Assembly (NCBI GenBank): GCA_049968235.1
Contig: JBMFRC010000023.1
Location: forward strand, 1 to 52,411
From: Candidatus Hydrogenedens sp.
Lineage (GTDB): Bacteria; Hydrogenedentota; Hydrogenedentia; Hydrogenedentales; Hydrogenedentaceae
Length of the DNA: 52,411 bases
Reading direction: 5' to 3'
How positions within the stretch are numbered: the first letter of the stretch is position 1; the number at the start of each line of letters is the position of its first letter. The position numbers were made by a program, and so were the translations under genes. Positions 14,690 to 52,411 of the stretch are shown piece after piece. Below the pieces are notes generated by a model that searched no databases, was not told the DNA's origin, and worked only from the letters and a program-made list of their open reading frames with translations.

Positions 14690-14730
14690 ACTTATTCTCC
14701 TTATAGTTTATTATTGATTATAATATATAT

Positions 14731-16008: not shown

Positions 16009-16175
16009 AATTATCCCCTTTATGGTTGTTAAATGAATTTATATTATAGAACAATTATATTTTTCTTATCATTTCATATTTGGGTGTGAAGGCAAAAAGT
16101 TTTTTATTATTCATTTTTTATATAATTTTATGCATATAATCGTATGTAGGCAAAATAAACAAAAAGGATTTTATT

Positions 16176-23269: not shown

Positions 23270-23291
23270 ATATAATAAACGAGCATAAGAT

Positions 23292-23328
23292 AAAAACTGG
23301 CACGTTATTATACCGTGCCAGTTTTTAT
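23292..23328 (-). terminator. Rho-independent terminator/attenuator between rpmA and obg (perfect hairpin flanked by A-run and T-run; formally bidirectional)
   Basis: CTGGCACG (23297-23304) and CGTGCCAG (23314-23321) form an 8-bp perfect stem (extendable with A:U pairs) around a 9-nt loop. AAAA lies 5' and TTTTTAT lies 3' on both strands. Confidence 0.7.
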
Positions 23329-23345
23329 CTTGTTATATAAAAATA

Positions 23346-23618
23346 TTAATTTTGATTTTCTGCATTTAAGGGAATCACATCAACACATTTTTTCCCGCCT
23401 ATAGTATAACGGAATTTTACAATTCCATTTACCATAGCGAAAATGGTATGGTCTCTTCCCAAGCCGACATTTTTACCGGGTTTGATTTTTGTTCCGCGCT
23501 GGCGGACCAAAATATTTCCTGAAAGGACTTGTTCGCCTTCATATCTTTTTACACCCAACATTTTGGGATTGCTATCTCTTCCATTTCTGGCGCTTCCACC
23601 ACTTTTTTTATGTGCCAT
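23346..23618 (-). CDS. rpmA: 50S ribosomal protein L27
   Basis: [28 protein letters not shown] ... canonical L27. Confidence 0.95.
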
Positions 23619-35021: not shown

Positions 35022-35562
35022 TTAAAAATTCCTTCCATAATTTTTCTGTAAAATTACAGTTGATTTTTAATTTATCTATTTTATACTCGGAAACAAATGA
35101 TAGCAAAGGAATATTTTTTGGGTAAATTATAAGGTTTGGATTGAGATATAACAAACCTGCAAATAAAAAATCTCTTAGAAATATATCTGTGTCAGGAATT
35201 ACTAAATTCTCAGTATTTTCTATTACATTTTTAAATAGTAATATGTCTAAATCTATTGTTCTCGGTGCATATTTGTCAATCGAATGAATTCTCTTCAGTT
35301 GTTTCTCAATATCTTTTAGTATATTAAACTTTAATTCAAACGGTGTTATTTCTTTTTTAAGTTCTGTCTCAATTACGCCATTGAAGAAATCCGGTTGCTT
35401 TTCTTTACCACCTATTGGCTGAGTGATAAAAATAGGAGAGATATTATTAATAATTAAATGTTTTTTTAGTAAATACAAAGATTTGGGTATGTTTATTTCG
35501 GGTTCAATATTAGAACCTATTCCTATGTAAATATATTCATTTAGAAGATTTGCTTGTGTCAT
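35011..35562 (-). CDS. folK: 6-hydroxymethyl-7,8-dihydropterin pyrophosphokinase (HPPK)
   Basis: [10 protein letters not shown]-terminal HPPK motif. 183 aa. Confidence 0.8.
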
Positions 35563-35924
35563 TTTTTCATTCGAGTAATTTCTACGGCAACACTTTTAGC
35601 AAATCGAAGCACACCGGGTTTATCTATTGTTACAGTTACTCCTTTTACTTTGTCAAACGATAAGCATATATTTGCAATTTCCTCAGCCATTCGTTCTATA
35701 AGGAAAAAAGAGGTATTTTCTATTGATTTTAAGATAGTTTTCTTTACTTTTTTATAATCTAATGCATCTTCAATATTGTCTGATATTCCAGCCGGTTTAC
35801 AGTCTGTATAAAGAATTATGTTTATCAGGATGTCTTGTTTTTCTCTTCTTTCATCTGGCTCAATCCCGATAATACAACGGACTTGTAAATCACGAATATA
35901 AATCTTATCAAATAATTCCATCAT
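35559..35924 (-). CDS. folB: Dihydroneopterin aldolase
   Basis: IYIRDLQVRCIIGIEPDER ... 121 aa, typical FolB. Confidence 0.85.
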   Translation of the reverse strand: MMELFDKIYIRDLQVRCIIGIEPDERREKQDILINIILYTDCKPAGISDNIEDALDYKKVKKTILKSIENTSFFLIERMAEEIANICLSFDKVKGVTVTIDKPGVLRFAKSVAVEITRMKK

Positions 35925-36672
35925 TTACACTCCCTAATAAAAATCGCCCACCATCTATAAATATGACCTGACCTGTGATGAATTTTGCTTTTAGCAAAAA
36001 AACTACAGCGTCAGAGACATCATTTTCATTACCAAATGTTTGGAGTGGATTTGTTTTACTCATTTTTTTAAGGTATTCATGTGTTTCACCCGGAGGTGGA
36101 AGTATTAGTCCCGGAGCAATAGCATTTACCCTTATTTTGGGGGCAAATTCTATTGCTAAAGTGCGGGTAATATAACGGAGTAATTGCTTGCCTAAATAAT
36201 AAGAGGAATGTCGTAAATCATAATCCCAAAGACGGGTATCTAAAATATTAATAATAATACCTTGTTCACATTGGGAATAGAGGCATCGAGATAATTGTAA
36301 TGGTGCCCATGCATGGATGTTTATTGATGTGATTAAATCTTCATAAGAAAAAGTTTTTATGTCGTGTTCAGGAAAGATGCTTGCATTATTTATAACAATA
36401 TCTATTTTCCCTAATTTATTTATTGCTGATTCAAACAGTATTTCTCCTGCATTTGTTATATTAAGGTCTTGCTTTATAAGTGTTGTTTTTATTGGATAAT
36501 TTTCTAAAGCTTTTTGTAATTGTTTTGCATCTTTATCTGAAGAGTTGTAATGTAAAGCAAGGTTTATGCCCTCCTGTGCTAAACGAAGAGATAAGTGTTT
36601 GCCAATTCGTTTTGCACTACCTGTGATAATAGCATTCATTCCTTTCAAGGGTAGCATCTTCTTAAATTCCAC
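35908..36672 (-). CDS. SDR-family oxidoreductase, likely pteridine/dihydromonapterin reductase (FolM/PTR1-like) by context
   Basis: TGSAKRIG cofactor motif, SDR catalytic Y-xxx-K (SSYYLGK). Co-oriented with folEKB with overlapping ends. Confidence 0.55.
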   Translation of the reverse strand: MEFKKMLPLKGMNAIITGSAKRIGKHLSLRLAQEGINLALHYNSSDKDAKQLQKALENYPIKTTLIKQDLNITNAGEILFESAINKLGKIDIVINNASIFPEHDIKTFSYEDLITSINIHAWAPLQLSRCLYSQCEQGIIINILDTRLWDYDLRHSSYYLGKQLLRYITRTLAIEFAPKIRVNAIAPGLILPPPGETHEYLKKMSKTNPLQTFGNENDVSDAVVFLLKAKFITGQVIFIDGGRFLLGSVNDGII

Positions 36673-36686
36673 TTAAACCTACATTG

Positions 36687-38729
36687 TTATTTTATTTTCA
36701 TTTTAACAAAATATTTTTGTATCCCTCTCTGGATTTCAAAAACAAAATTGTTCTTATTTTGCTGTTTAATAGTATTCAATTTTTCTTTAAAATCCTTAAT
36801 ATTTTCTATAGGGTCATTCTGTAGAGATAGAATAATATCTCCTTGTTCTAATTTAGCAATACTTGCCCAACCTCCGGAAATCACCTGTTCAATAAATACG
36901 CCCTTTACATCTTCTTTCAAATTCATATCAACTCTATCGTAAAAACATATATCTCTTACAGTAAATTCCAGCCATTCGTCTTGATATTTCTCGACCATAT
37001 TTCGTGAGATAGGTTCTTTAATAAGTTGTATAGGAATTTGTTTGACTTCATTTTCTCGGATAATGGAGATTGTAATTTCCTGGTCAATAGAAAAGCCACG
37101 AACTTTTTCCTTCCATTCTTCATAATCTTCTACTTTGGTAGCATGGAATTTTTCGTTCTCAATTTCTTTAATAATATCGCCGACTCGCAATTCTTCCAGT
37201 CCTTTTTCTTTTATGGGATAAATTCGTGTTATGATAAAACCACCTCCTTCTAAGTTCTTTTTTTCTGCCATTTCTTTTGTCAGAACCTGAACTTCCACGC
37301 CTATCCAGGGTTTACTGGCTTCTCTAATCGGTTCCACAGTTTGAGCATCCCCAACTTTTACCATTGAATAAATCCTGTTTCGATTTCTTTCTGCGATTAT
37401 AAGGACTTTTTCTTTCTTTTCTTGTAATAGAGAATTTGTTTTCTTTTCTAAATCTTCCAATGAAGATATTTTTTCATTCTCAATTTCTAATATTACATCT
37501 CCAGCCTGTAAGGGCGGTTTTGCCTGTGCTGAATTACCGCCCATTCGTAGCGACGTAATGAGGACACCGTTTGTATTATCTCTATTTTTATTAAGAGCAA
37601 AGAACCAGTTAAGATTTTTGGCGGTAAAGCCCCATGCTTGAAATTCTTTTTCTTCTGTTTGAGGGAAATCATATAAAATAGGTATAACGGGAATGTCTAA
37701 TTTAACAGAATTACGAATAATAGAAAAGTTAACGGGCTTATCTGTTGGTAAGGAGCATAAAATGTTGTTAATTAATGGAATTTGTTCCATATACTTGACA
37801 TCAATAGGTTCATCATTTATTTTTATTAAAATATCACCTATTTTTATACCTGATTTATCCGCCGGGGAATCTGGATATACATATCTGACGAGAGCACCTG
37901 TATCTAATTTCTCTGCTTCGGTAATAGGTTGTATTTCAAGTCCTGTCCATGACCTTTTAACTTTACCATTTTGTATAATATCGTTTACGACTTTTTTAAC
38001 TAAGTTGGAAGGGATAGCCCCGCCGAGAGCATATTTAATTTCATTTATACCTATAATTTCTCCTTGAAGGTTAACAAGAGGACCTCCTGAACTACCTGGG
38101 CTAATTTCTGCATTGTGTCCTAACCAACATACCAAACTCCCAATATTTTCTCCTTCTTCTGACAATATTTCAAAACTGTTCAATTTATAGGGTAATATCA
38201 TTCGTTGATTGCTAATAATCCCCAGAGTAACAGATGGATTTAAAGCCATAGGAGAACCCATTGCTAAAACATAATCTCCTACTTTTGTATAATCAGAATC
38301 TCCAAAAGACCCAAACACAAAATTTTGGGGCTCGTCGGTAACAATTTTAAGAACGCTTATATCCGTCAGGGCATCTGTTCCAATCAGTTTTAGTGGATAG
38401 TTTTTTAAATTTGAAAAGGAACAATCTGCAAAATATGCTTTGCCTGCTACATGGTGATTTGTTACAATGTAACCATCTGCAGAAATAACTATTCCACTAC
38501 CATATTTTTCCTGTTTTAACTCCCTTCCTTCTGAATAATATTTTTCAATAACATGTATTCGAACAAGGGCAGGTTGCAGTTTGTTCACAGTACGGATAAT
38601 AGAATCTTGAATTTGTTCGGGAAGGGTTCCCATATTCGATGGAGCGATATTTTCTCCTGAATATATTGTTGAAATGGTAGAAGAAAACAGGAAAAGAAAG
38701 AGAGGAATCATTTTTGTAAGAAGTTGCAT
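36687..38729 (-). CDS. HtrA/DegP-family periplasmic serine protease with four PDZ domains
   Basis: Signal peptide. Catalytic triad context TNHHV (His) ... D ... GSSGGPLV (Ser). Four successive GD(I/V)I(L)-type PDZ cores at residues about 250-340, 360-450, 470-560 and 590-680. Confidence 0.8.
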   Translation of the reverse strand: MQLLTKMIPLFLFLFSSTISTIYSGENIAPSNMGTLPEQIQDSIIRTVNKLQPALVRIHVIEKYYSEGRELKQEKYGSGIVISADGYIVTNHHVAGKAYFADCSFSNLKNYPLKLIGTDALTDISVLKIVTDEPQNFVFGSFGDSDYTKVGDYVLAMGSPMALNPSVTLGIISNQRMILPYKLNSFEILSEEGENIGSLVCWLGHNAEISPGSSGGPLVNLQGEIIGINEIKYALGGAIPSNLVKKVVNDIIQNGKVKRSWTGLEIQPITEAEKLDTGALVRYVYPDSPADKSGIKIGDILIKINDEPIDVKYMEQIPLINNILCSLPTDKPVNFSIIRNSVKLDIPVIPILYDFPQTEEKEFQAWGFTAKNLNWFFALNKNRDNTNGVLITSLRMGGNSAQAKPPLQAGDVILEIENEKISSLEDLEKKTNSLLQEKKEKVLIIAERNRNRIYSMVKVGDAQTVEPIREASKPWIGVEVQVLTKEMAEKKNLEGGGFIITRIYPIKEKGLEELRVGDIIKEIENEKFHATKVEDYEEWKEKVRGFSIDQEITISIIRENEVKQIPIQLIKEPISRNMVEKYQDEWLEFTVRDICFYDRVDMNLKEDVKGVFIEQVISGGWASIAKLEQGDIILSLQNDPIENIKDFKEKLNTIKQQNKNNFVFEIQRGIQKYFVKMKIK

Positions 38730-40027: not shown

Positions 40028-41029
40028 ATGAACGAAAAATATAATATAAATGAAATAAATCCTTATTTTATTTTCGATGAGGGGTATTTCCCAAAACCGT
40101 GGGGAAACTTTCGTTTTAAAGAAAAATTGAATAAAAACATATTAGGTGTGGAGCCTATTGGAGAAGCATGGCTAATTTCAGATAGGGAAGAGTATCAGAG
40201 TTCTATTATGCGGGGTCCACTAAAAGGGAAAAAAATTAATGAAGTGATAAATACATTTCCAGAATTTATTTTTGGAACAGAGAAAATAAGCCCTTTTCCT
40301 AAAAAATTCCCTTTATTATTAAAGTTAATAGATGCTAATGAATTATTGTCTGTTCAGGTTCATCCTGATGACCAAAAAGCAAAAAAGTTTGGGGAACATG
40401 ACTCGGGCAAAACAGAAATGTGGTACATACTCGATGCAAAACCAAATAGTTTTATATATCTCGGTCTAAAAAAGAATGTAAGAAAAGAACATTTAATAAA
40501 TGAAATACAACACCACGGAGATGTTGATAGATTACTTAATAAAATTTATGTAAAAACGGGGGACCATTACCTGATTCCTGCGGGAACGGTTCATGCAATT
40601 GGTCCTGGTATATTATTAGCAGAAATACAACAAAATAGTAATGTTACATATCGTTTATATGATTGGAATCGAGTAGATTCTACCGGTAAACCGCGATTAT
40701 TACATATTGATAAAGCAATGGAAACAATTCAGGAAGAACCTATAATTGTTCGTGCAAGAAAAATAGAAAAAAAACATATATTTGGGGTTGAAAAATATCT
40801 ATGTTCCTGTCCCTATTTTATAGCAAAATATTGGGAAATAAAAAAAGAATGTCAAATATGGGATAATAATTACAGTTTTCATATAGTTTTATCGTTGAGT
40901 GATACAAATATAAATATTTTTGATGAAGATATTAATTTGAGAAGTGGAGAATCTTTATTGATACCTGCAAAGTCAAATAATTATGTTATATTTAGAGAGG
41001 GGATATTTTTAGATTATTACCAGTTGTAA
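40028..41029 (+). CDS. manA: Type I phosphomannose isomerase (cupin)
   Basis: LSVQVHPDD, GKTEMWYIL, HAIGPG metal-ligand blocks of class I PMI. Confidence 0.75.
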   Translation: MNEKYNINEINPYFIFDEGYFPKPWGNFRFKEKLNKNILGVEPIGEAWLISDREEYQSSIMRGPLKGKKINEVINTFPEFIFGTEKISPFPKKFPLLLKLIDANELLSVQVHPDDQKAKKFGEHDSGKTEMWYILDAKPNSFIYLGLKKNVRKEHLINEIQHHGDVDRLLNKIYVKTGDHYLIPAGTVHAIGPGILLAEIQQNSNVTYRLYDWNRVDSTGKPRLLHIDKAMETIQEEPIIVRARKIEKKHIFGVEKYLCSCPYFIAKYWEIKKECQIWDNNYSFHIVLSLSDTNINIFDEDINLRSGESLLIPAKSNNYVIFREGIFLDYYQL

Positions 41030-41092
41030 TTGTTCCATATTGGAACATTCTAATCTATTTGAGGGATTTTTATAATCATATTAGTAAATTTT

Positions 41093-41668
41093 ATGGAAGA
41101 AATTAATAAAGAAATAAAGTTAATTAATGAATGTCTGAACGGGAATGCTGAGGCATTTCGGGATTTAGTTATGACTTATCAAACAGCAGTATATGCAACT
41201 GCATTTTACTATGTGAAGAATTCAAATATAGCAAAGGAAATTGTTCAGGAAACGTTCATTAATGCATATAAGAATCTTTACCAACTCCGTGATTTAACAA
41301 AATTTGGAAGTTGGTTAAAGGAAATTACAATTCGTATTTCTTTCCAATATATCCAGAAAAAGAAAGAAATTAGTACTGATATACAAGATGAGAGAATCAT
41401 CCCGATTAATTCCCAAAAGATAACAGGAAAGGGAGTTTCTTTATCATTTGAAGAGATAAAATTTGCTATACAACAATTACCGGAAAGATACAGACTTCCT
41501 GTAGTATTAAAATACTTAGAAGGAATGACTTACGAAGAAATCAGCAGATTTACAGGAGAATCTCCGGGCGAGATTAAAGGGATATTACAAAGAGCAGTAA
41601 AACAGTTACAGCAGATATTTGATAGTAGAGATGGAGAGACAAAGCAATGGCACGATGTTCACAAATAG
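41093..41668 (+). CDS. ECF (sigma-24 type) RNA polymerase sigma factor
   Basis: Region 2 (...VYATAFYYVKNSNIAKEIVQETFINAYKN...) and region 4 (LPERYRLPVVLKYLEGMTYEEISRFTG). Confidence 0.85.
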   Translation: MEEINKEIKLINECLNGNAEAFRDLVMTYQTAVYATAFYYVKNSNIAKEIVQETFINAYKNLYQLRDLTKFGSWLKEITIRISFQYIQKKKEISTDIQDERIIPINSQKITGKGVSLSFEEIKFAIQQLPERYRLPVVLKYLEGMTYEEISRFTGESPGEIKGILQRAVKQLQQIFDSRDGETKQWHDVHK

Positions 41669-42918
41669 AGCCTGAATTACAGGCATACATTGATGGTGAA
41701 TTAAGCAGGTCTAAAGAGTTAATTGTAGAAGAGCATTTATCTGCCTGTATGCATTGTAAACAGGAATTTGAAATCTTACGGAAAAGTAACGCATATCTGT
41801 ATGAATCTCTCAGTCCCTACAAGTTAAATGAGTCGTTAGATGAACAAATAATGAAAAAACTTCCGGAGATAGATATTAGTTACAATCAAACACATCAAAT
41901 CACACTGCGAGTTAAGCATCAAGATGAAAGCCCTTATTCATTTTCCAACATATTTCCTTATCTTGCTTTGACAGCAATGACTGTTCTGGGTGTTTTTATA
42001 TTTGTAAGTTGGCCCCATCGGGAAATTTCCGAATCACAAAAAGTTGGAATAGCGATTAATATGTCAGGTAATAGTTCGATAATTAACAATAACATAAACA
42101 ACATAATGAAAGAAGAGGACCTGACACCCATTAAAACTGATAATTATATAGAGACAAAAGAAGATTCAATAGTTTATACCTATCTAAAAGGTAATTCTAT
42201 TTTGAAGTTAGCCGAAAAGACAAGAATACGAATTTTAGATGAACGAACCGTAAATTTGGAAAAAGGGAAAGTTTTATTTGATATTGGTAAAGATAAAAAA
42301 GTGTTTCGAGTGAATACCCCGCAGGGGATTGTAACAGTATTTGGCACACAATTCCAGGTAGAAGTTGATTCTACACAAATATTAACAACAGTTCATAGGG
42401 GAGAGGTGACAGTAGAAACCGCACATCAATTTGTTGTGCTAAAGCAAAATCAACAGGTTTTATTGAAAGGCAATACTTTTGCATCGGAAGTAAAAACTTG
42501 TGATTCGAATGAAATAATTGCCTGGTCTCGTAATATAGAACCTTCGGAACGAATATTACAAAAGATATCCAATATTTTCGGGAATTCCGAATCAATACTT
42601 ATAGCGACACCTGCTTCGCAAGTATTTGTAGTTCCCACACAAATGAAAGAAATTTCGAGCCTTGTATTGTTCTGGGATAAGCAAAAGATTATTAGTAATT
42701 CTAATTTTACAATTTATGCATCTGATGATGAGTTAAAACCTTTATTCCGTTATAAGTTAACGAATAACTTACTGGAATCGTTTGATGGAGAGATTAATAT
42801 CCCTATTCCCTCAGATATATCTCTCAGAAATGTAAAAATTTTACATATAGAAATAATTTCAGATGATATAGATGCATCTTCTACAATGCCATTTACAAAG
42901 GTTTATGCAAAGAATTGA
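41647..42918 (+). CDS. Anti-sigma factor, zinc-finger (HLSACMHCK) plus TM plus FecR-like periplasmic domain with a C-terminal extension
   Basis: Overlaps the sigma gene end. Zf-HC2-like HxxxCxxC. One TM (LALTAMTVLGVFIFVSW). FecR-like beta-rich block (NTPQGIVTVFGTQFQVEV). Confidence 0.75.
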   Translation: MARCSQIEPELQAYIDGELSRSKELIVEEHLSACMHCKQEFEILRKSNAYLYESLSPYKLNESLDEQIMKKLPEIDISYNQTHQITLRVKHQDESPYSFSNIFPYLALTAMTVLGVFIFVSWPHREISESQKVGIAINMSGNSSIINNNINNIMKEEDLTPIKTDNYIETKEDSIVYTYLKGNSILKLAEKTRIRILDERTVNLEKGKVLFDIGKDKKVFRVNTPQGIVTVFGTQFQVEVDSTQILTTVHRGEVTVETAHQFVVLKQNQQVLLKGNTFASEVKTCDSNEIIAWSRNIEPSERILQKISNIFGNSESILIATPASQVFVVPTQMKEISSLVLFWDKQKIISNSNFTIYASDDELKPLFRYKLTNNLLESFDGEINIPIPSDISLRNVKILHIEIISDDIDASSTMPFTKVYAKN

Positions 42919-42959
42919 TATGAATATTCGTTTTGACATAAATAGGAATAAAAATAAAG

Positions 42960-43211
42960 CCCACCCTGTCGGGAGGCATGATGAAGCAAAAAACAAAGTC
43001 AAATTTCTGCCTCACATCACTCCTTCCCCAGAAATACCTGCAGCCAAAATAACTGCTTTCATGCATGCCTCCCGCTTAGAAATATTGATTATTCTCAGTA
43101 AAGTGGGCTCGATGATATATACGGCGAAACAACTGTCTCCTCTCTCCACTCCTTCCTCAAGAGTACCAGCCTAACAAAAAAGCCGCATCGAGCCCCTTCT
43201 CTTTTTTTCGC
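42960..43211 (+). ncRNA. Candidate structured non-coding RNA or cis-regulatory leader (unknown class) ending in an intrinsic terminator
   Basis: No plausible ORF. Local GC is visibly higher than the surroundings. Nested long-range perfect complements: GGGAGGCATG at 42972-42981 with CATGCCTCCC at 43065-43074, flanking ATGAAGCA/TGCTTTCAT. GGGCTCGATG at 43105-43114 pairs with CATCGAGCCC at 43186-43195, followed by CTTCTCTTTTTTTCGC. Two CU-rich ACTCCTTCC motifs sit in predicted loops. A TTGACA -35-like hexamer lies at 42933-42938. Confidence 0.45.
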
Positions 43212-43265
43212 TTTCTTTCGTTGTTATAATAAACAAAAAAATAAAATTTCAATAGGGGAAAATAA

Positions 43266-46172
43266 TTGAAGGGATTCAATAAAAAAATCTATATTATTTC
43301 TTTAATGTGGATATATTCTTTTTCTATTTGTTCTGTGATTTATGCACAGGGCTGGACAGAAACCTATTGGGAACAACTTGAAATATATAAAGATGATTAT
43401 GGAATTCCGCATATATTTTCTAAGGATATACGTGCGTTAGGTTTCGGTTTTGGCTATGTTCAGGCTCAGGACCACTGGGAATCGATGCTTTTATCATACC
43501 GTTTAGCTAATGGAAAATTATCCGAAGTTTTAGGAGCAGGTGAGGAAGCATCCGACCGTTTCTCTATACAGGCCGGACATAGATATTATGGGATGTTAGC
43601 CTATAATAATTGTGATTCCACAACAAGAGAATTATGCGATGGTTTTGCTGAAGGAGTAAATTCATGGATTTTAGAAAATCGTGATAAGTTACCGGAATGG
43701 GTAGATGGAATACAACCCCAAGATATTTTTTCTTTATGGCATGCGTTTATTGTTTCCCTTGCTCCAATAGATATACCTAACTTTCCCAAAAGACCTCCTG
43801 GCATAAAGACAGGATTCGCCTTTTCAATAGCTTCTGAGAAAAGCAGAGCCAATACGCCCATATTTGCCTTGAGTAGTCATCAATTTTATCAGGGACCATT
43901 TCGCTGGTATGAAGCACACCTTATATGTGGAGACTATAATGTATATGGATGCACTCTCTATGGACTGCCGATACTTATACAGGGACATTCTCTCAAACAT
44001 GCATGGGCATTAACACCCAACCAATCCGATTTTGCAGATGTTTTTATAGAGAATCCTCTATCTAATTCTGCTAGGAATACCAAATCTATGTTAAATATGT
44101 CCAATAGATCAGATGAAAAATCAATGCTATTACTTCAATATATGTCTCAAAGTGATGTTTACTATGTAAAAACTCTAAATGGATTAGAACAACGATTTGT
44201 TCCTGTACATATAACATCCAGAGGTCCACTTCTGGTTGGACCGGGAAATGAATTTTTCACATGGAAAATTGGAGGCTATGAGGATATTGGGGCGTTTTTT
44301 CAATTATGGGAAATGGGGCGTAGTAGTTCGTTAGAAAAGTTCAAACAGGCAGTATATCTTCATCAACTTCCTTGTTTTCATATTTTATATATGGATAATT
44401 CAAATCAGTCTTATTATTTTTATTCAACAAAAGTAGGATTGAGAGAACCTCCTCCCGGTTTTCCTTCTGGGGAGATGGAACAGATTCGGGATATAAACTG
44501 GACAACGCCTGTTCCATCAAAGTTTTATCCTGTGGGATGGAGATATCTGGTTTCGCCAGAATTACTCCCACACATACAAAATCCTGTAACAGGTTATATG
44601 CAAATATGTGGAGGACCACCGGATTCGATAACGGATGATATAAAAATTTCTAATCAAGATTTTTCGGCAAAGTATATAAAAGATATTGAAAATGTAGTAA
44701 GTAGGAGGATAAGAAGTGTTTTAAGAACAGATAAAAGGTCTTTAAGAGAAGTACAATCTCTGTTATTAGAGGACCTATCCTGTCTGGCTGTAGAAGTAGT
44801 ACCCCGAATATTGAATATTGCGAATAGTCATGGGCAAGAACTATCTTCATTTCATCCAGATTTACCCCTTGCTGTTCAATTATTGAATAACTGGAACTTA
44901 CGGATGACAACTGAAGGTTCTGCACCTGTTGTTTTCAATCTATGGTCTCATTTTTTTAGTAAACAATCCGGGATTATTCCAAGTATCGAAATTGAACCTT
45001 TTTACTCACTAATGAATAAAAATAAAGAAATGGAAGGACCTTGTTTAGAGGCATTAGTAAACGCGGTTCGTTATCTTAAGAATAACCGAAATAGTATAAA
45101 TATAAATTGGGGAGAAGTTCACCGTTTACAAAGAGGTGCGGAAGAGTATTCATTAGGGGGTAGTGAAATAGGAGGAAGTACTTTTTTACTATCTGAAATT
45201 CCTCCTGATACAGAACGATGGGGGCAGATTACCTATGGGATTGGTTTTGCCCTTGTAGCGAAATTAGGTAATACAATTGAATCCTATTCTGTTCAACCTT
45301 TTGGGAATTCTGAGTCTGTTCAATCTATACATTATAAAGACCAATGGGATTTATTTCGTAATCGGCAAATGAAAAGAACCCGGTTTTACCCGGAAGATAT
45401 ATACCGATTTGCTGAGCAAGGTATAGGAAGACGGTTGGTCTTTATTCCACCGGGAGGTGTGGGCGAAATTCGTTGTATAAGTAGTTCGCGAATCTTTGTA
45501 TCCATGAAAGCAATGATAGAGCCTCCTATAGAAATTCCTGAAGGTATGTTTCCTTTTTCTGTATTTATAAAACCACAATGTGTTCCTAAAGAAGCAAATG
45601 TACAGTTTGCTATCAGATTATATATTCCTAATGATATATGTGCCCCAGAAAATATTTCACAACTTTCACTTTATTATTACGATGATAGTTCTGGATGGGT
45701 TCGTTCTGAAAATCAAAATTCGGACAGTATAGGTGGTTTTATTGAGGGTATTCTTGAGAGGGCTTTTCTTTTTGTAATTTTAGGACCTAAAGAAGTAGCA
45801 ATATTAAATCCTGAAGAAACATCTGTAAGGCTGGACGGAAAACAAACAAATACGATAGGTCAAGGAATATTTTCTCCGGGATTGCCCGGTGAAATACCCA
45901 CAGCATTGAAGAAAAAGGGAAACTTCTTTTTCTCTATTCAAGGAGAGCAAAAAAATAATACATTACCTAAACCCATTGATTTACCTGTAATAAGAGATAA
46001 AAACACTTCTGATCAATTAGAACAAACAAACAACGGAGATAAAATATCCGAATCCGAAAAGCAAAAAGATAACACGAATAGAACTACAGAAAAAGACAAA
46101 AAGAAAGGTAAAATCACATCAAAAGATATTCAACCTAAACAAATCAAAAAGAATTTTTCGATAAAAAAGTAA
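43266..46172 (+). CDS. Secreted penicillin-amidase (S45, Ntn-hydrolase) family protein with a long C-terminal extension and Lys-rich tail
   Basis: Signal peptide (TTG start; alternative ATG at 43305). N-terminal DDYGIPHIF...GFGYVQAQDHWESM...RLANGKLSEVLG...ASDRF and ...DGFAEGVNSWI match the S45 alpha-subunit blocks. GPFRWYEAH...GLPILIQGHS matches the beta-subunit block after a putative Ser nucleophile. The 250-aa C-terminal extension ends KDKKKGKITSKDIQPKQIKK. Confidence 0.65.
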   Translation: MKGFNKKIYIISLMWIYSFSICSVIYAQGWTETYWEQLEIYKDDYGIPHIFSKDIRALGFGFGYVQAQDHWESMLLSYRLANGKLSEVLGAGEEASDRFSIQAGHRYYGMLAYNNCDSTTRELCDGFAEGVNSWILENRDKLPEWVDGIQPQDIFSLWHAFIVSLAPIDIPNFPKRPPGIKTGFAFSIASEKSRANTPIFALSSHQFYQGPFRWYEAHLICGDYNVYGCTLYGLPILIQGHSLKHAWALTPNQSDFADVFIENPLSNSARNTKSMLNMSNRSDEKSMLLLQYMSQSDVYYVKTLNGLEQRFVPVHITSRGPLLVGPGNEFFTWKIGGYEDIGAFFQLWEMGRSSSLEKFKQAVYLHQLPCFHILYMDNSNQSYYFYSTKVGLREPPPGFPSGEMEQIRDINWTTPVPSKFYPVGWRYLVSPELLPHIQNPVTGYMQICGGPPDSITDDIKISNQDFSAKYIKDIENVVSRRIRSVLRTDKRSLREVQSLLLEDLSCLAVEVVPRILNIANSHGQELSSFHPDLPLAVQLLNNWNLRMTTEGSAPVVFNLWSHFFSKQSGIIPSIEIEPFYSLMNKNKEMEGPCLEALVNAVRYLKNNRNSININWGEVHRLQRGAEEYSLGGSEIGGSTFLLSEIPPDTERWGQITYGIGFALVAKLGNTIESYSVQPFGNSESVQSIHYKDQWDLFRNRQMKRTRFYPEDIYRFAEQGIGRRLVFIPPGGVGEIRCISSSRIFVSMKAMIEPPIEIPEGMFPFSVFIKPQCVPKEANVQFAIRLYIPNDICAPENISQLSLYYYDDSSGWVRSENQNSDSIGGFIEGILERAFLFVILGPKEVAILNPEETSVRLDGKQTNTIGQGIFSPGLPGEIPTALKKKGNFFFSIQGEQKNNTLPKPIDLPVIRDKNTSDQLEQTNNGDKISESEKQKDNTNRTTEKDKKKGKITSKDIQPKQIKKNFSIKK

Positions 46173-46181
46173 TCACCATTA

Positions 46182-48014
46182 TTATAGAATTGTTCCTAAC
46201 CATTCTTCGATAATTTTTTTATAGTCTGCCATACTTCCATCAGACTCACGATATTGTGTGACATTATTCCGTTCAGCAACTTCAAAAAAGCGTTTGGCTC
46301 GAGGTATCATTGTAGGGTCTTCATTTTTCTTCTTCAAGTCGGTATCTCTTTTTCTGGCTCTTTCCATGATTGCATAATCAATACTCAATCTTGCTACCTT
46401 TACTCGTTCTAATACCTCAGGTTTACCTGCTACTGCATTTTCTGCTTTATCAAAGAGCGTTTCTGCCTGTTTTAACATTTCAGGTGTTATATGTTTAGCA
46501 TTATTAGGACCGACCCAGAGATACATGTGGATTTCTCTTTTTTGTGTCGGTTTATGTATCAGTTGCAGGTATTCCATGATATAAGGTCCTGCCTCTTCAT
46601 AGAAAGCATCTACAAATTCACTGATTGCCAATTTATCATCATAGGCAGGGTCCCATAATAATTTAGCATTCAAATATGCGCTGAGTTCATTAAATTCTCC
46701 ATGTAAAGTTGTATATGTATCCTGTTCAAAGATGCCTGTAACATTATGCTTTACAAAAAATCGAATATTGGGTGCACGAACTTCAAGATTCGGGAAAGGA
46801 ACCAGGTAATGGCTGAAAGATGTTACATAGTCCCAAACCCATAAACGATTACATATTTGGGACCAGCCTTCTATATCTTTTACAAAATCACGATTCTGCT
46901 TAGAAACACAACTTTCTAAAGGATGAGCAAAGCAACATTCGATACTACAAAGACGAATGATAACATTGGGTTCGGGACGCATTGTTTTTGGAGGTTTCCG
47001 GGACCATTGATAGGCAAGGGTATCTATAACTTTATCTGGAAATTCATCATGCACGGCTCGAGCCACACTATTTACAAGGTATAACAAAGGACCCATTTGA
47101 GAATCTTCGGCGGTTGCTAATGCGGAACATTTCGGGCATTGACAGAAGTTATACCAGTCGTTCTGAGAAACAGAAAATACTTTTGCTCCAGGATGTTCCC
47201 GCATCCATTTTTTTACTTCCTCTGTGACTAATTGTATAACTTCTTCGTTTGTGCAACAGAGTTGTGTCTTTTCCTTGATTCTTTTTCCATCCACCATAGA
47301 GAAATACTCCGGGTGGGTATCAAAATATTTTTCCGGTGGCAAAAGTGAATTGAAAGTATGAACAAAACCATAATACACAATTTTACCTCCGTGTTTTTCT
47401 TCTAGTCGGCATGCATTTCCATTGGCACGATTACGGGCGCACCAATCTCCATCAATAAAACCATCCATTGTAAAGGGTTCGCGATATTCTAAGGGAGGGA
47501 CAAAGATTTCATTCATGGCAGGTAATGCAATGGTCTCCATCTTTGGTATTCTACTCACCGTGGATGTAAACCAGCGACAACCTAAATGGTCATCGAGAAC
47601 ACCATATACTCCGTATAAAGTACCTCTTGGGTCTCCCCCTGCGATAATAATATTGTCCTTCGTAACTCGCAGGTTATATCCTTCCTCTCCTAAATTTTCC
47701 CAATCAATTTTATAGTCAATATTTTCCAACCGTTTACTTTTTCCTAATATTATTTCCTTGCCCTGAATGGGTATGGAATCTGTAATAATGGGTAATTCTG
47801 CACCACTCATTTCTTTGATAAATCGCTGCAATTCCTCACTTGCATATCTGATAGAGGGGATACAATTTTCCGGGATAACGATACTACATTGGGGAGTGCC
47901 ATTCTTTACAATTATGAAATAATCTCCCATAATAAAAGAAGGTTTTTTAGCACAACCCGAAGATAGAATTACCAATACAATTATTGTTATCAGAAAGTTT
48001 TTTGAAAATTGCAT
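46182..48014 (-). CDS. Lipoprotein, possibly DUF4838 / glycoside-hydrolase-like (GH20/GH67-type N-domain plus barrel); function unknown
   Basis: Lipobox LSSGC. The TLYGVYGVLDDHLGCRWF block resembles the N-terminal domain of DUF4838/alpha-glucuronidase-like proteins. Assignment is by memory of the motif only. Confidence 0.35.
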   Translation of the reverse strand: MQFSKNFLITIIVLVILSSGCAKKPSFIMGDYFIIVKNGTPQCSIVIPENCIPSIRYASEELQRFIKEMSGAELPIITDSIPIQGKEIILGKSKRLENIDYKIDWENLGEEGYNLRVTKDNIIIAGGDPRGTLYGVYGVLDDHLGCRWFTSTVSRIPKMETIALPAMNEIFVPPLEYREPFTMDGFIDGDWCARNRANGNACRLEEKHGGKIVYYGFVHTFNSLLPPEKYFDTHPEYFSMVDGKRIKEKTQLCCTNEEVIQLVTEEVKKWMREHPGAKVFSVSQNDWYNFCQCPKCSALATAEDSQMGPLLYLVNSVARAVHDEFPDKVIDTLAYQWSRKPPKTMRPEPNVIIRLCSIECCFAHPLESCVSKQNRDFVKDIEGWSQICNRLWVWDYVTSFSHYLVPFPNLEVRAPNIRFFVKHNVTGIFEQDTYTTLHGEFNELSAYLNAKLLWDPAYDDKLAISEFVDAFYEEAGPYIMEYLQLIHKPTQKREIHMYLWVGPNNAKHITPEMLKQAETLFDKAENAVAGKPEVLERVKVARLSIDYAIMERARKRDTDLKKKNEDPTMIPRAKRFFEVAERNNVTQYRESDGSMADYKKIIEEWLGTIL

Positions 48015-48100
48015 ATTAAATCTCCTATCTATTAATTTTAATCACACTGTTACTATGATATATAAAATAATATAAATAACCTTAATATTACGAATTCAAA

Positions 48101-51100
48101 ATGTCTATGTTTGAAAAAAAAATCTTTTGTGCTTGCTTCATTATTATCTTCTTTCTTTTAGATTATCAAGTTTATTCATTAAATTTGTTCAAAAAAGAAG
48201 ATAGAAAATCCCCTATTTATTCCTTTTCAGATTATACGACTCCTGTTATATGGGGAAAGCCATTGGAATATGGGTCATTAAAAATACTTGCCATTGCTCC
48301 TAATTACTGTTTTCTGGATTTTATAGAATTAGAAAAACGATTGGATTGTTCTGTCCAATTAATAACAACGGAAGATGCTCTCCATGTAGGTTGTGACCCG
48401 CTATGGGGTATATGGTGTAGGGAAGAACAAAAAAAGGAAAACATTATCAGACAGATTCGGGATAGTATAGAAAAAAAGTGGGATTTAATTATTATTGCAG
48501 GTATCGTGTTGGATATACTTCCAAAGGAAATTTATGAATCACTCATTACGAAAGTATCAAAAGGATGTGGTTTATTTATAATTCCGGCTATACCTTTAAT
48601 CCCCTCTTTACCTCACCCCATAGAGGAATTTATTAATACCCTTGAACCGAATACAGAACCTTCAGAACGATGGAAAAACTTATTTTCAGGTGGAAATGTT
48701 CGTGTAAACGATACAACGAATAGTATTAAAGTTATATGTGCAGAATTTAAAAAGGGGAGAATTGTTTACTCCCCGAACTATTTAAGCGGTGTAATGAATC
48801 ATGCTCTATTACCTGAAAAAGCAGTTATAGAAGAGATGAGTTATTTTGAAAATGCCTGGGCCGGTATTATTTCATTGATTTTATGGAGTAGCCAGATATC
48901 AGAGGATTGTAAAATAGTAAATATATCTGATGCTAAACCTGCTGGTCCTGTTGAAGAAGAAATTCCTCCCGAATTGCCGATAATGGCTATTAAAAATTTA
49001 AATCAATCTCTATTGGGTCCCGGAACTTATCCTTTTCTTATTGAAATAAAAAGAAACGATAAACAAAAAATTGATGAAATAAAAGTTCAAATACGTAGGG
49101 AAAATGAACTTTTTTCATATCAGCAATATGAATTTAAGCCTAATATCCAGAAAAAAGGACGAATCTTTACACAGGTAGAATTGCCGATTGGTGCTGGGAA
49201 CTATTTTTTTGATATATGGCTTCTCCGAAAGAAGAAAGTATTGGATTTTTTTACCAAACAAATTACTTTTAATTCCTGGCCTGATATTGTATCTGTAGAA
49301 CCAAATAAAAATTTTGTTTTTCCCAATGATTCTATTACTCTTAAAATTAATGTTTCCTCCAATATAATGGAAAGTAGAGAAGGAACAATTATTATTCAAG
49401 GAATTGATAATTATCCATATTTGAAAAATACAGAGGGTAATTTGGTTTGTGAGCAAAGCCAACCTATTACAGGGAAAGGGGGAGAGGTTCGAATACCACT
49501 AAACTTTGCAGACCTTTCCGGAAATTACTTAAAAATTAATATATGGGGAGCCCCTATGCGATTAACTTCATTAGGGGTAAATTATTCTACTTTGTTTTCT
49601 TACCGTTCTCTATATATCCCTATTCAAAGGAAAATATTTAAAAGAGGGTGGAAAGATATTGTTCAACTGAATAATATTCGTGAATATAATCAATTACAAA
49701 TAGCAAAATTTTTAATGGATAATTTTAATTGTGGAAACTATCTTTCTTTAGACCAGTATAAAATGCCGGGCGTTACAAAACTTTACCAGTCCTGTATTGT
49801 TCAAATGGCAGAGGAGACAGTTTCCAAAGCAACAAATAAAATCCAAAGAGAACCCTGTATAAATGATGAAAATTATCTGGATAAAGTTAAAAATAATTTA
49901 AATCAGGCGGTTACCTCTACGATTATTCCAACACCTTTCGCTATTTCATTAGGCATGAATAATTGTCTGGTTCAAACCGAAGAATGGGTTTGCTTTTGTG
50001 AGAATTGCATAAGCAAATTTATGCAGTTTCGGCATTTCAATGAATACTTAGATACAATACCTGAATTAGCTAATAAATTTGAACACGAGAATATTGAATT
50101 GTTAAGAGAGGATATTATAAACAAGAATTTTCCTGCTTATTTATCTTTTTATAAAAAGTTTATGGAAAATAGTTTTATAAATTTTGAAATAGATATAAAA
50201 AACAAATTAAAGACTTCTTTTTCTGATATTCCTATGGGATTTCGCTATTACAGTGATAAGAATACGATAAAAGATATTGATTGGATTGAATATATTAATT
50301 CTATGGATTGGGTTGTTATAGAACCAGAAGATTTTGCATATTCACTTGTCTCTTATATTAAATCAAAGGGAAAATCATTTTGGGTGTGTATAGATTTTGC
50401 CAATCCACAACAAACACCTCAGGGATTAATATGGAACTACTGGAATGCGATATTTAATCAAGCAAATGGAGTATGGCTGAAAAATATAAATGGAGATATG
50501 TATAGTTCATTGCCTATTAAATTATTCGATAAATATGGAAGTATAACACCCGAAATAAGTTCACTTTTTCATATATCTGAAAAGATTGGAGAAGGGATGA
50601 AAAATTTCATCTCTCAATTAAAACCTGATTTTAACGAGGAAGTAGGTATTTATTTGTCGACGGAAAATCTCTTTTTAACAAACAATATTCCAGAATTTAG
50701 TCATAAAAATTCTTTCACTTACTTTACGCGATTGTTAAATGGATATGGGATAAACCCAATTGTTATTACAAAAGAGGATATTTTACGAAGTAAAAATATG
50801 AAAGTTTTAATTCTACCCTGTTGTCTGTGGCTATCGGAAGAAGAGATAGAAAATTTATCCGAATTTTTAATTAATGGGACAATTATTGCAGATATTTCTC
50901 CTGGAATTATAAATAACGCAGATTTAACGAAGGAGTTACAGGATATCCTTAGTAGTCAGGATATTAATCAAGAGAAGATTAGGAATGATAATGTATATTT
51001 ATTAAATAAAAGCCTATCTAAAAAAATAGAAAATGAACCCTTAGAAAATGTGAAAAAGGAAATAAGGTTTATACAGGATATTTTAATAAGAAATAAGGTT

Positions 51101-51664
51101 CACAGTCCTTACTTGAATGAGAATGAATGGATAGATGGAAAATTTTATTCATTTAACAATAAAAGAATTATAGTCTGGTTACCTAATCTTACGCCTGTTA
51201 TTGTGAATAACGAATGTAAAATTAATTCGGAATTATTTAAATACAATAGTAAATTATGGGATGTGTTTAATGATAAAAGAATTAAAGCAGGAAAGAATAT
51301 ATCTTTAAATATACATAATTTACAGCCGTTATTTATTTGTTCTAATCCATATTTTTTAAAAGAGATGAAACTTACTGCTCCTGATGTCATAAAATCGAGT
51401 AGTCATCTGCCTGTTCAAATAGAATTAAAACAAAAAGGGAAAGAAAAAACATTTCTTGACCATTGGGTAAATATCGAATTAAAGGCAAAAGGTAATAAAA
51501 AGGAAATTACGATTAACTCTCAGATTATACAAACCAATCAAGAAGGTAAAGGGGAAACTTATATTTCTATCCCTAAAAATCAGCCTTCAGGGTGGTATGT
51601 CATAGTAGCAAAAGAAATAATAACTGGAACTACAATTGAAAAGGTGATAAAAATAAATAATTAG
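48101..51664 (+). CDS. Large (1187 aa) secreted or membrane-anchored hypothetical protein
   Basis: N-terminal hydrophobic signal/anchor. No recognised catalytic motif. Asn/Ile/Lys-rich. Confidence 0.6.
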   Translation: MSMFEKKIFCACFIIIFFLLDYQVYSLNLFKKEDRKSPIYSFSDYTTPVIWGKPLEYGSLKILAIAPNYCFLDFIELEKRLDCSVQLITTEDALHVGCDPLWGIWCREEQKKENIIRQIRDSIEKKWDLIIIAGIVLDILPKEIYESLITKVSKGCGLFIIPAIPLIPSLPHPIEEFINTLEPNTEPSERWKNLFSGGNVRVNDTTNSIKVICAEFKKGRIVYSPNYLSGVMNHALLPEKAVIEEMSYFENAWAGIISLILWSSQISEDCKIVNISDAKPAGPVEEEIPPELPIMAIKNLNQSLLGPGTYPFLIEIKRNDKQKIDEIKVQIRRENELFSYQQYEFKPNIQKKGRIFTQVELPIGAGNYFFDIWLLRKKKVLDFFTKQITFNSWPDIVSVEPNKNFVFPNDSITLKINVSSNIMESREGTIIIQGIDNYPYLKNTEGNLVCEQSQPITGKGGEVRIPLNFADLSGNYLKINIWGAPMRLTSLGVNYSTLFSYRSLYIPIQRKIFKRGWKDIVQLNNIREYNQLQIAKFLMDNFNCGNYLSLDQYKMPGVTKLYQSCIVQMAEETVSKATNKIQREPCINDENYLDKVKNNLNQAVTSTIIPTPFAISLGMNNCLVQTEEWVCFCENCISKFMQFRHFNEYLDTIPELANKFEHENIELLREDIINKNFPAYLSFYKKFMENSFINFEIDIKNKLKTSFSDIPMGFRYYSDKNTIKDIDWIEYINSMDWVVIEPEDFAYSLVSYIKSKGKSFWVCIDFANPQQTPQGLIWNYWNAIFNQANGVWLKNINGDMYSSLPIKLFDKYGSITPEISSLFHISEKIGEGMKNFISQLKPDFNEEVGIYLSTENLFLTNNIPEFSHKNSFTYFTRLLNGYGINPIVITKEDILRSKNMKVLILPCCLWLSEEEIENLSEFLINGTIIADISPGIINNADLTKELQDILSSQDINQEKIRNDNVYLLNKSLSKKIENEPLENVKKEIRFIQDILIRNKVHSPYLNENEWIDGKFYSFNNKRIIVWLPNLTPVIVNNECKINSELFKYNSKLWDVFNDKRIKAGKNISLNIHNLQPLFICSNPYFLKEMKLTAPDVIKSSSHLPVQIELKQKGKEKTFLDHWVNIELKAKGNKKEITINSQIIQTNQEGKGETYISIPKNQPSGWYVIVAKEIITGTTIEKVIKINN

Positions 51665-52056: not shown

Positions 52057-52411
52057 ATGAAAAAGCAAATGACTATCGGGAAAAGATTATTTTTAGGATT
52101 CGGTTTTTCACTCGTTATCTCAATTATACTCGGGATTATTGCAGTATTTTCTTTAAATAGGATTGACAGTGATTTGGAACATGTTTTAAAGAAATATTCC
52201 CCATTTATTCAAAATCTTTTACAGATCAGAATATATTTTACAAGAATAGATTCTGCTGAAAATTCTCTATTATCTATGGATATATCAACAAAAGAACGTG
52301 AAGAGAAAATAAAACAAATTGCTAAAAAGATATACGGTGCTGATGATGTTGAGTTTTCAGCAAAAGCAATAAAAGATTTAGAAACAATAAAAAGATTGGA
52401 GAAATCTCACT
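52057..52411 (+). CDS. Methyl-accepting chemotaxis protein, N-terminal part (runs off window end)
   Basis: RBS AAGGAA, then MKKQMTIGKRLFLGFGFSLVISIILGIIAVFSLNRI, a typical MCP N-terminus (TM1 then ligand-binding domain). No stop before the window end. Confidence 0.6.
   Translation, partial: MKKQMTIGKRLFLGFGFSLVISIILGIIAVFSLNRIDSDLEHVLKKYSPFIQNLLQIRIYFTRIDSAENSLLSMDISTKEREEKIKQIAKKIYGADDVEFSAKAIKDLETIKRLEKSH

Follow-up and report, generated by a model that had tools for sequence, protein, structure and literature searches.

Extracytoplasmic function (ECF) sigma factors are the largest class of signal-responsive bacterial sigma factors; they are commonly portrayed as two-protein switches, sometimes with separately encoded regulon small RNAs (sRNAs). 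Among described RNAs with a comparable layout are the cuckoo/CcsR RNAs, which consist of tandem hairpin modules with an anti-Shine-Dalgarno (anti-SD) loop and variable stems, and which derive from the 3' untranslated region (UTR) of an upstream gene under RpoHI/HII control (PMC8034643, PMC4615179). UTR-derived sRNAs occur in other sigma-factor circuits, including sigma28-dependent UTR sRNAs (PMC9779115, PMC10578931), and the 3'-UTR sRNA UdsC binds the 5' UTR of rpoHII (PMC9779115). The window analysed here is a 52,411-nt stretch of the forward strand of contig JBMFRC010000023.1 from Candidatus Hydrogenedens sp. It holds an ECF sigma/anti-sigma gene pair, followed by a tandem array of structured RNA modules and then by genes for three exported hydrolase-like proteins (an amidase, a DUF4838 lipoprotein and a 1187-aa protein). 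Taken alone, the proteins are an ordinary ECF sigma/anti-sigma pair beside lineage-specific hydrolase-like genes; the RNA array between them is the unusual feature. No papers on regulatory RNAs in Hydrogenedentota were found in a literature search. The array is a previously undescribed RNA family and a variant on the theme of alternative-sigma operons with anti-SD sRNA modules.

The window is AT-rich, at ~27-40% G+C. The features of the sigma operon and the array are given below by their positions in it.

41032..41046, no strand: GTTCCA-N3-TGGAAC palindrome, GTTCCATATTGGAAC, candidate operator/promoter element of the sigma operon
41093..41668, plus strand: ECF-type sigma factor, 191 aa, with Sigma70_r2 and Sigma70_r4_2 (Pfam)
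41647..42918, plus strand: single-pass anti-sigma factor, 423 aa, with zf-HC2 and FecR (Pfam)
42969..43079, plus strand: RNA module 1, inverted repeat I1; covariance-model match of 58 bits, E 8e-11
43095..43209, plus strand: RNA module 2, inverted repeat I2 and direct repeat D1; covariance-model match of 37.5 bits, E 7e-6

A preliminary description of this DNA, made from the window alone, had placed a structured non-coding element after the anti-sigma gene. The element is real and consists of two tandem modules. This intergenic region is conserved more strongly than any other part of the locus. In its alignment from six loci, two blocks of ~40 nt are invariant despite flanking proteins that are 33-55% identical, and in the window one block is related to the other (CCUCNCNNCACUCCUUCC). 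The stem arms of module 1 (~42969-42987 and 43057-43075) enclose the core UUUCUGCCUCACAUCACUCCUUCCCCAGAAAUACCUGCAGCC and show compensatory changes relative to loci L006 and L007, while those of module 2 (~43102-43114 and 43186-43197) enclose the core CUGUCUCCUCUCUCCACUCCUUCCUCAAGAGUACC, then CUUCUCUUUUUUU. One compensatory pair of arms reads CGGGAGGCAUG/CAUGCCUCCCG in the window versus GGGAGAUGCGAGG/CCUCGUAUCUCCC in L006.

A degenerate core pattern scanned over 185,579 species, one genome each, returned 40 stretches, nearly all from metagenome-assembled genomes (MAGs) labelled Hydrogenedentota, with the exact pattern present 1-4 times per locus. Two stretches carry archaeal labels, of which L010 was judged a chance match and L017 is a near copy of a Hydrogenedentota locus. 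Loci L012, L019-L023, L031, L032, L043, L045 and L047 are labelled uncultured Nitrospirales/Nitrospiraceae, and L017 (Bathyarchaeia) is nearly identical to L008. Labels other than Hydrogenedentota are probably placeholders or mark mis-binned contigs. The array is found once per genome, apparent second loci being halves of one locus parted by a break in the assembly or by the limits of the retrieved stretch, and it comprises 1-4 modules of ~110 nt per locus, two of them in the window.

The outer stem of every module is 15-25 bp long and unrelated in sequence between lineages. MAFFT and RNAalifold, applied to 67 modules, gave 8 pairs only, with the stems out of register; a covariance model was used instead, built from 25 gap-free modules with the outer stem alone annotated. 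This model finds 89 modules in 44 sources, extra diverged modules among them, on one strand per locus and with none in the chance match L010. Standard pairs occupy 87.4% of stem cells, versus 62.3% in column shuffles (none of 500 shuffles reached the observed level) and 39-48% with the 3' partner slid. All 20 stem pairs have changes on both sides, in 424 cells, and the stem covariation score is 0.577, versus 0.196 in shuffles and 0.08-0.11 when slid. G-U/U-G pairs number 160 versus 62 for A-C/C-A, pointing to the strand of the sigma operon. So do the U-rich tails typical of the family: the 14 nt 3' of the stem are 41% T, and a run of at least four T is present in 23 of 82 modules versus 3 of 82 for the mirror feature. 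Rfam gave no match at E <= 10 in the window, nor at E <= 1 in the GC-rich array of L026. The modules are very probably a real structured RNA tied to the sigma/anti-sigma pair.

Within the stem lies a CU-rich, nearly invariant core (UUCUGCCUCAcgUCACUCCUUCCCCA; consensus uUCUgCCUCacgUCACUCCUUCCcCAagAgUacCUGCAgCC) that carries an anti-Shine-Dalgarno-like motif, CACUCCUUCCCC. Candidate inner helices of the core (CUGC/GCAG, ACUC/GAGU, UUCUG/CAGAA) are not conserved between module types. Unpaired core columns ~60 and 86 covary from C,C to A,A, with CACG...UACC in most modules and CAAG...UAAC in one lineage group (examples at L012 5988-6094, L032 4801-4909 and L008 2953-3063). The joint change suggests that the two positions touch in the tertiary structure or meet the same external partner.

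Public gene callers place an open reading frame (ORF) of 84-102 aa over the modules: window 42872-43174 (plus strand), L002 4831-5085, L003 4770-5078, L004 4786-5049 and L006 4860-5117. A small-protein reading of the ORF at 42872-43174 was rejected, for all codon positions are invariant in the ~40-nt blocks, the stems show covariation and indel lengths are not divisible by three. These ORFs are best explained as spurious gene calls.

Wherever a locus includes the upstream DNA, tblastn finds orthologues of the sigma factor and the anti-sigma factor immediately 5' of the array and on the same strand. Sigma orthologues of 39-88% identity are present in ~30 loci and the pair is kept in ~35, with anti-sigma orthologues just 25-32% identical in most lineages; three apparent exceptions carry the anti-sigma C-terminus at the edge of the locus. 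The spacer from the anti-sigma stop codon to module 1 measures ~25-60 nt and contains no conserved promoter-like motif. On the other side of the array the genes differ. Among ~40 Hydrogenedentota loci compared, the amidase, DUF4838 and 1187-aa genes lie 3' of the sigma/anti-sigma pair solely in the Hydrogenedens-like clade, and ~25 more distant loci have the orthologous pair followed by unrelated genes. The next genes there encode an FGE-sulfatase-domain protein, a GT2-methyltransferase fusion, a DHDPS-like protein, D-Tyr-tRNA deacylase (Dtd), RhaT, an aldo-keto reductase, ZnuA, a DtxR-type repressor, a response regulator or a xylose-isomerase-like protein, and several genes 3' of the array are convergent (CarB, and a 964-aa ORF in L046). 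Because these genes are heterogeneous and several are convergent, the array is not the leader of a particular downstream gene; because unrelated genes follow outside the Hydrogenedens-like clade, the three enzymes do not count as conserved partners of the sigma/anti-sigma pair. Across Hydrogenedentota the constant partner of the pair is the RNA array, not the three exported enzymes.

The product of 41093-41668 is assigned by its domains to the ECF (group 4) branch of the sigma-70 family, being small and having sigma-2 and sigma-4 domains only. It matches TIGR02937 (sigma70-ECF superfamily) at 75.9 bits against a cut-off of 42.9, and reaches no equivalog cut-off in NCBIfam. Its gene overlaps that of the anti-sigma factor by 22 nt (41647-41668). 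In the anti-sigma factor, zf-HC2 (PF13490) covers residues 4-37 and FecR (PF04773) residues 168-254 (E 3e-15). Residues C4, H30, C34 and C37 are invariant in 19 homologues and include the zinc-binding HxxxCxxC motif; the N-terminus is recognisable as a zinc-binding (ZAS) anti-sigma domain. Database homologues number 20, all from Hydrogenedens/Hydrogenedentes assemblies and all with both Pfam domains. The AlphaFold2 (AF2) model, with a predicted local distance difference test (pLDDT) score of 79, has a helical N-terminal domain, a transmembrane segment at ~102-121, a FecR fold at 132-275, a helical linker at 287-311 and a beta-sandwich at 324-422. Foldseek matches the FecR part to 4m0h/4m0n (Parabacteroides anti-sigma) and 6ovk_R (PupR), with a root-mean-square deviation of 2-2.5 A over ~135 residues, and the periplasmic part is modelled as a FecR/PupR-type fold. 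The naming of the pair as ECF sigma and FecR-type anti-sigma in the preliminary description was thus correct (Sigma70_r2/r4_2 and TIGR02937; zf-HC2 plus FecR and a PupR-like fold), and the ~150 extra C-terminal residues that it noted come to 169 beyond the FecR block.

The C-terminal beta-sandwich has no Foldseek match, and the C-terminal part of PupR is also unlike it. TonB_dep_Rec, Plug and STN domains have no match among the 19 larger ORFs of the window that were scanned, and neither the five ORFs of the locus nor 10 further large ones encode a TonB-dependent receptor, in line with the earlier remark that none of the three exported proteins is a TonB-dependent transporter; none of the related Hydrogenedens-clade loci lists a TonB-dependent transducer. 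The locus therefore lacks the classical FecR/PupR cell-surface-signalling arrangement, having no TonB-dependent transducer and a C-terminal domain unlike the transducer-contacting part of PupR.

Upstream of the sigma gene, GTTCCATATTGGAAC is a perfect palindrome placed directly after the PMI stop codon and 46 nt 5' of the sigma start codon. GTTCCA-N3-TGGAAC has its single exact match in the window at 41032-41046, and the same sequence or a close variant stands 5' of the sigma gene in nearly all Hydrogenedentota loci (noted in L004, L006-L008, L012, L013, L021, L022, L024, L026, L028, L030, L034-L036, L038, L044 and L047). GC-rich lineages have TGC ~7 nt after TGGAAC, which resembles a sigma-54 -24/-12 promoter, and there is no conserved -10 element at 16-17 nt from TGGAAC. 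The TGGAAC could be an ECF -35 element, a sigma-54-like -24 element or an operator. A sigma-54 activator is encoded in the window at 28755-30137.

In GC-rich lineages the palindrome is followed by a sigma leader of ~100 nt. The sigma ribosome-binding site (RBS) of these lineages, CUUGGGGAAGGA, reads (CU)UGGGGAAGGA(G), the exact complement of the invariant module segment UCCUUCCCCAAG, and a second leader block, GAGGCA(GAA), is complementary to (UUC)UGCCUC of the module. Predicted pairing partners in these lineages are UCCUUCCCC and GGGGAAGGA (module core/sigma leader). GGGGAAG is found 11-22 nt before the sigma ATG in 19 of 29 loci tested; of the ten without it, L038 alone has a close variant and eight belong to the window's clade. 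GGGGAAG occurs 127 times in 206 kb, 64 of these occurrences being the antisense of modules, and ~21 of the other 63 are sigma RBSs versus ~0.06 expected. Complementarity of at least 7 nt to the module cores of the same locus covers 9-24 nt of the 100-nt sigma leader, versus a mean of 1-3 nt in control windows from the same loci, with an empirical p <= 0.05 in 20 of 21 GC-rich loci. The idea that the sigma leader is an inverted copy of the module was rejected, there being no opposite-strand covariance-model matches and a different order of segments.

On balance we lean, by a little, towards an ECF sigma/anti-sigma operon in which the tandem RNA array is an evolutionarily fixed third component that feeds back on sigma translation. 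The array would be co-transcribed with the sigma and anti-sigma genes as a 3'-UTR-type RNA and might be processed into single modules. The module core would pair with the translation-initiation region (TIR) of the sigma gene, either in trans or through a 5'-3' contact inside one mRNA, and would probably pair with other mRNAs too; such anti-Shine-Dalgarno-type pairing would add an RNA-level feedback arm to a self-activating ECF circuit. Whether the array acts by pairing with the sigma leader in most lineages we put at an even chance. In the window's clade the cores are invariant though leader complementarity has been lost, so that at least one other target or partner of the array would be expected there. 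A broader statement of the proposal, in which a phylum-wide RNA family is hard-wired into the ECF module with its core pairing with the sigma factor's own initiation region, and has been rewired to other targets in the Hydrogenedens clade, is offered more tentatively, at rather less than an even chance. Confidence in any specific function of the array in the window's own clade is low.

Several observations weigh against feedback by pairing. In the window's clade (the window, L001, L003, L004, L006, L007 and L022) the sigma leader is short and AT-rich and shows no complementarity, and the 52-kb window contains no convincing target of the array. Weak leads noted in the window are the module cores against the folB TIR (gene 35559-35924; site 35925-35965, minus strand) at -23.5 kcal/mol, and the anti-sigma start region (41620-41650, GAUGGAGAGAC) against module 2 at -20.6 kcal/mol. 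Where leaders are complementary the segments are not colinear, their order being C-A-B in the leader and A'-B'-C' in the core. The main site overlaps the Shine-Dalgarno sequence, and a CU-rich loop would pair with many RBSs; RNAduplex z-scores against mononucleotide shuffles are just ~-2. The summed minimum free energy is lower for the antisense strand, a point judged not decisive, and the core, which hardly varies, does not allow its fold to be established from the alignment. Invariance over ~40 nt would also suit an RNA that binds a protein or a ligand. The co-transcription, processing and 3' ends of the array are what we infer from the sequence.

The three genes that follow the array in the window are these.

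43266..46172, plus strand: S45 acylase-like exported protein (Ntn-hydrolase-like), 968 aa, TTG start; PF01804
46182..48014, minus strand: DUF4838 lipoprotein, 610 aa; PF16126 plus a GH67N/GH20b-like N-terminal domain
48101..51664, plus strand: exported or membrane-anchored multidomain protein of 1187 aa; distant GH42-like profile matches

All five ORFs from the sigma gene onwards lie where the preliminary description had put them. In the amidase, PF01804 (Penicil_amidase) covers residues 39-712 (268 bits, E 3e-79), in agreement with the earlier label of S45 acylase-like, and the closest solved relatives are glutaryl-7-ACA/cephalosporin acylases (4e56, E 1e-29); the C-terminal tail is of low complexity and rich in K/E/T. 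The residue aligned with the Ser nucleophile is Gly, and a Ser/Thr one residue earlier (K-[ST]-[GS]-F-A-F) is kept in 9 orthologues; catalytic competence is plausible. The lipoprotein had been called GH-like, which holds: its DUF4838 domain (PF16126) matches the full-length profile at E 4e-105, with the GH67N/GH20b-like domain N-terminal to it. DUF4838 is the catalytic domain of BT1035 (GH163) and of Sp_0475 (GH185, a 6-sulfo-GlcNAcase) (PMC10570127), and the lipoprotein is assigned by its profile match a GH163/GH185 hexosaminidase-like catalytic-type domain.

The 1187-aa protein had been described as an orphan, which holds only in part. Exact look-up gave no record of it; it is 100% identical to a partial NCBI protein of a Candidatus Hydrogenedens MAG and has 13 homologues only, all in Hydrogenedens-type assemblies. 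The suggested profile searches were informative for the 610-aa protein, which is DUF4838, while the 1187-aa window protein alone has no match in Pfam and shows a distant GH42 relationship by its family profile. PF08532 (GH42 trimerisation domain) matches 7 of 13 scanned family sequences and PF02449 matches 2 weakly, and the family profile matches the GH42 beta-galactosidases 9ta3, 6lvw, 4oif and 3tts (E 2e-5 to 8e-4) over ~580-745 and 847-943 of the protein, the CxCxxC motif included. The domain order is an N-terminal alpha/beta domain, two beta-sandwiches, the GH42-like region (~580-945) with CxCxxC, and a C-terminal beta-sandwich. The acid/base N-E of GH42 (DNEF of 6lvw) falls on N621-C622, in an alignment that is weak and may be shifted. 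An invariant cysteine cluster of the family, C...CxCxxC (586, 631, 633, 636), aligns with the CxCxxC of GH42 beta-galactosidases, and the position of the acid/base Glu is Cys or absent. The GH42-like domain may be non-catalytic or re-purposed. The AF2 model of this protein has a pLDDT of 56, and Foldseek against PDB gave just Ig/FN3-like beta-sandwiches (TM <= 0.11), which are uninformative.

Export signals were read from the translations of all three: MKGFNKKIYIISLMWIYSFSICSVIYAQ in the amidase, the lipobox ...VILSSGC in the DUF4838 protein and an N-terminal hydrophobic helix in the 1187-aa protein. Of the earlier picture of a sigma-headed block of three secreted proteins, the export signals stand and the co-directional block does not: lying on the minus strand, the DUF4838 gene converges with the amidase gene and diverges from that for the 1187-aa protein. 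Together the proteins form a clade-specific hydrolase-like set (S45, GH163/185-like, GH42-like) and not demonstrably an ECF regulon.

A different account of the locus, which we consider unlikely, is that the ECF/FecR pair responds to an extracytoplasmic cue by directly activating the neighbouring genes for exported hydrolase-like proteins, with the non-coding element as an incidental leader. Besides the export signals on all three products, the periplasmic FecR/PupR-like fold of the anti-sigma factor and its extra conserved beta-sandwich, which could bind a ligand, would suit this account, as would gene order. The block HtrA (minus strand)/prepilin peptidase/PMI/sigma/anti-sigma/~340-bp intergenic region/amidase/DUF4838 (minus strand)/1187-aa is present in all loci encoding 1187-aa homologues; the 1187-aa family is found at no other locus, and the genes stay adjacent in each of the nine or ten distinct Hydrogenedens-clade loci, including those where the 1187-aa protein is down to 33-35% identical. 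The upstream housekeeping genes for HtrA, prepilin peptidase (PilD) and PMI are kept in the same clade too, however, and the conservation is therefore general synteny. The orthologous sigma/anti-sigma/RNA unit has unrelated neighbours in ~25 other lineages, so that the gene-order check proposed in the preliminary description succeeds in every Hydrogenedens-clade locus and fails in the more distant lineages. The opposite strand of the DUF4838 gene also speaks against co-regulation, as do the promoter searches. The proposed shared ECF-type promoter was not found: no GGAAC-type or other shared motif is present 5' of 43266 or 48101, nor in the DUF4838/1187-aa intergenic region at 48015-48100, and a generic sigma-70 promoter/terminator scan of 40900-48200 gave no enrichment over shuffles. 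Module 2 ends in a terminator-like stem and U-tract, and an extended -10-like TGTTATAAT at ~43222-43231, after module 2 and before the TTG start codon of the amidase, is kept as TATAAT, TAAAAT or TAGAAT in the intergenic alignment of related loci, which suggests that the amidase gene has its own, separate promoter of housekeeping type. Control of the three enzymes by the sigma factor in the Hydrogenedens clade is possible but unsupported, and the comparative test, together with the missing TonB-dependent transducer, gives no support to the surface-signalling-controlled secreted-enzyme module originally suggested.

The modules themselves could be read in two other ways. As a cis-acting 5' leader (riboswitch, attenuator or thermometer) of the downstream gene, the amidase gene in the window, they would account for the position of the array in the Hydrogenedens clade, where it ends 30-60 nt short of the amidase start, for a tandem layout and invariant core that resemble tandem riboswitches, and for a stem and U-tract that could serve as a terminator. 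This is very improbable: downstream genes are wholly different between lineages, several are convergent and the anti-sigma gene upstream is the sole constant neighbour, so that the survey of gene context largely refutes it. The other possibility is that the modules bind a protein or ligand, for example as a decoy or scaffold that engages an RNA-binding protein or part of the sigma/anti-sigma system, and that leader complementarity is secondary; this is improbable to a lesser degree. It would explain the non-Watson-Crick covariation from C,C to A,A, a hint of tertiary or partner contacts, and also why ~40 nt are nearly invariant across the phylum, more than a seed region needs, and why the core has not changed in the window's clade despite the loss of leader complementarity there. 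Set against it, there is no candidate partner to name, complementary sites are strongly enriched in sigma leaders across lineages, and anti-SD sRNAs classically have such a CU-rich loop on a variable stem.

A multi-PDZ HtrA gene lies directly 3' of the array, on the same strand, in L012, L014, L031 and L037 (and L044), and in the window the HtrA gene is at 36687-38729 on the minus strand, 5' of the prepilin peptidase gene and on the other strand from it. PilD-PMI-sigma-anti-sigma-RNA-HtrA may be the ancestral order, into which the three hydrolase-like genes would later have been inserted. HtrA RBSs, considered as array targets, show no comparable complementarity. Outside the conserved block the genes vary, some loci having a Che cluster and others an Ig-repeat protein and AlaRS. 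The full Che cluster of L001 (CheA, CheW, CheX, CheY, CheD, CheR, HDOD) spans 14131-23561, L004 and L005 have the Ig-repeat protein and AlaRS instead, and the window at 52058-52411 contains the start of a gene for a methyl-accepting chemotaxis protein. The remaining genes of the window encode an [FeFe]-hydrogenase, a sulfatase, Obg, a CHASE4 kinase with a sigma-54 activator, and an Ig-repeat protein.

The array offers a testable example of RNA-level autoregulation built into an ECF operon, and, if the favoured feedback reading is true, Hydrogenedentota ECF signalling has a built-in RNA feedback loop. The analysis also supplies an RNA family for databases (seed alignment, covariance model and 89 members) and flags a recurrent mis-annotation, the ORF called over the RNA modules. 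Parts of the system have parallels elsewhere. Like FecI/FecR/FecA and PupI/PupR/PupB, the locus pairs an ECF sigma factor with a single-pass anti-sigma factor that has a periplasmic FecR fold; unlike them, it has a zinc-finger (HxxxCxxC) N-terminus, an unmatched C-terminal beta-sandwich of ~100 residues and no nearby TonB-dependent transducer. In Staphylococcus aureus a C-rich anti-SD motif in the 3' UTR of icaR reportedly pairs with the Shine-Dalgarno region of its own mRNA and represses translation; in contrast to the array, that is a single short motif on a monocistronic mRNA, which lacks tandem structured modules.

An sRNA arm that feeds back on a sigma circuit, and RNAs derived from 3' UTRs, are features shared with the sigmaE-dependent sRNAs (MicA, RybB, MicL; FoxI/FoxJ of Fusobacterium) and with UTR-derived sRNAs (PMC5736990, PMC11005410, PMC9779115, PMC10578931). 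Those sRNAs use their own sigma-dependent promoters or belong to other operons, and mostly target porin or other mRNAs, whereas the array described here is part of the sigma/anti-sigma operon itself, is tandem and is complementary to the sigma RBS.

On sequence grounds the Hydrogenedentota array is an analogue of the cuckoo RNAs and not a member, because the tests for their defining CCUCCUCCC motif and for Rfam models fail. Like cuckoo/CcsR1-4 of Alphaproteobacteria (the ar14/RSs0680 group of Rfam), it has adjacent hairpin modules, two to four there and 1-4 here, in which the stems vary freely with compensation and a pyrimidine-rich anti-Shine-Dalgarno-like motif is conserved. Both are encoded beside one particular upstream gene, from whose 3' UTR the RNAs are co-transcribed in Rhodobacter, and both are tied to an alternative sigma factor response. 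The Hydrogenedentota modules, which match no Rfam model, differ in carrying CACUCCUUCCCC inside a conserved core of ~40 nt rather than a 9-nt CCUCCUCCC loop, and in having stems of ~20 bp that enclose an interior of 60-70 nt rather than small hairpins. Their upstream partner is an ECF sigma/anti-sigma operon, where that of the cuckoo RNAs is a gene for a DUF1127 protein, and their predicted conserved target, in the phylum Hydrogenedentota, is the sigma mRNA itself.

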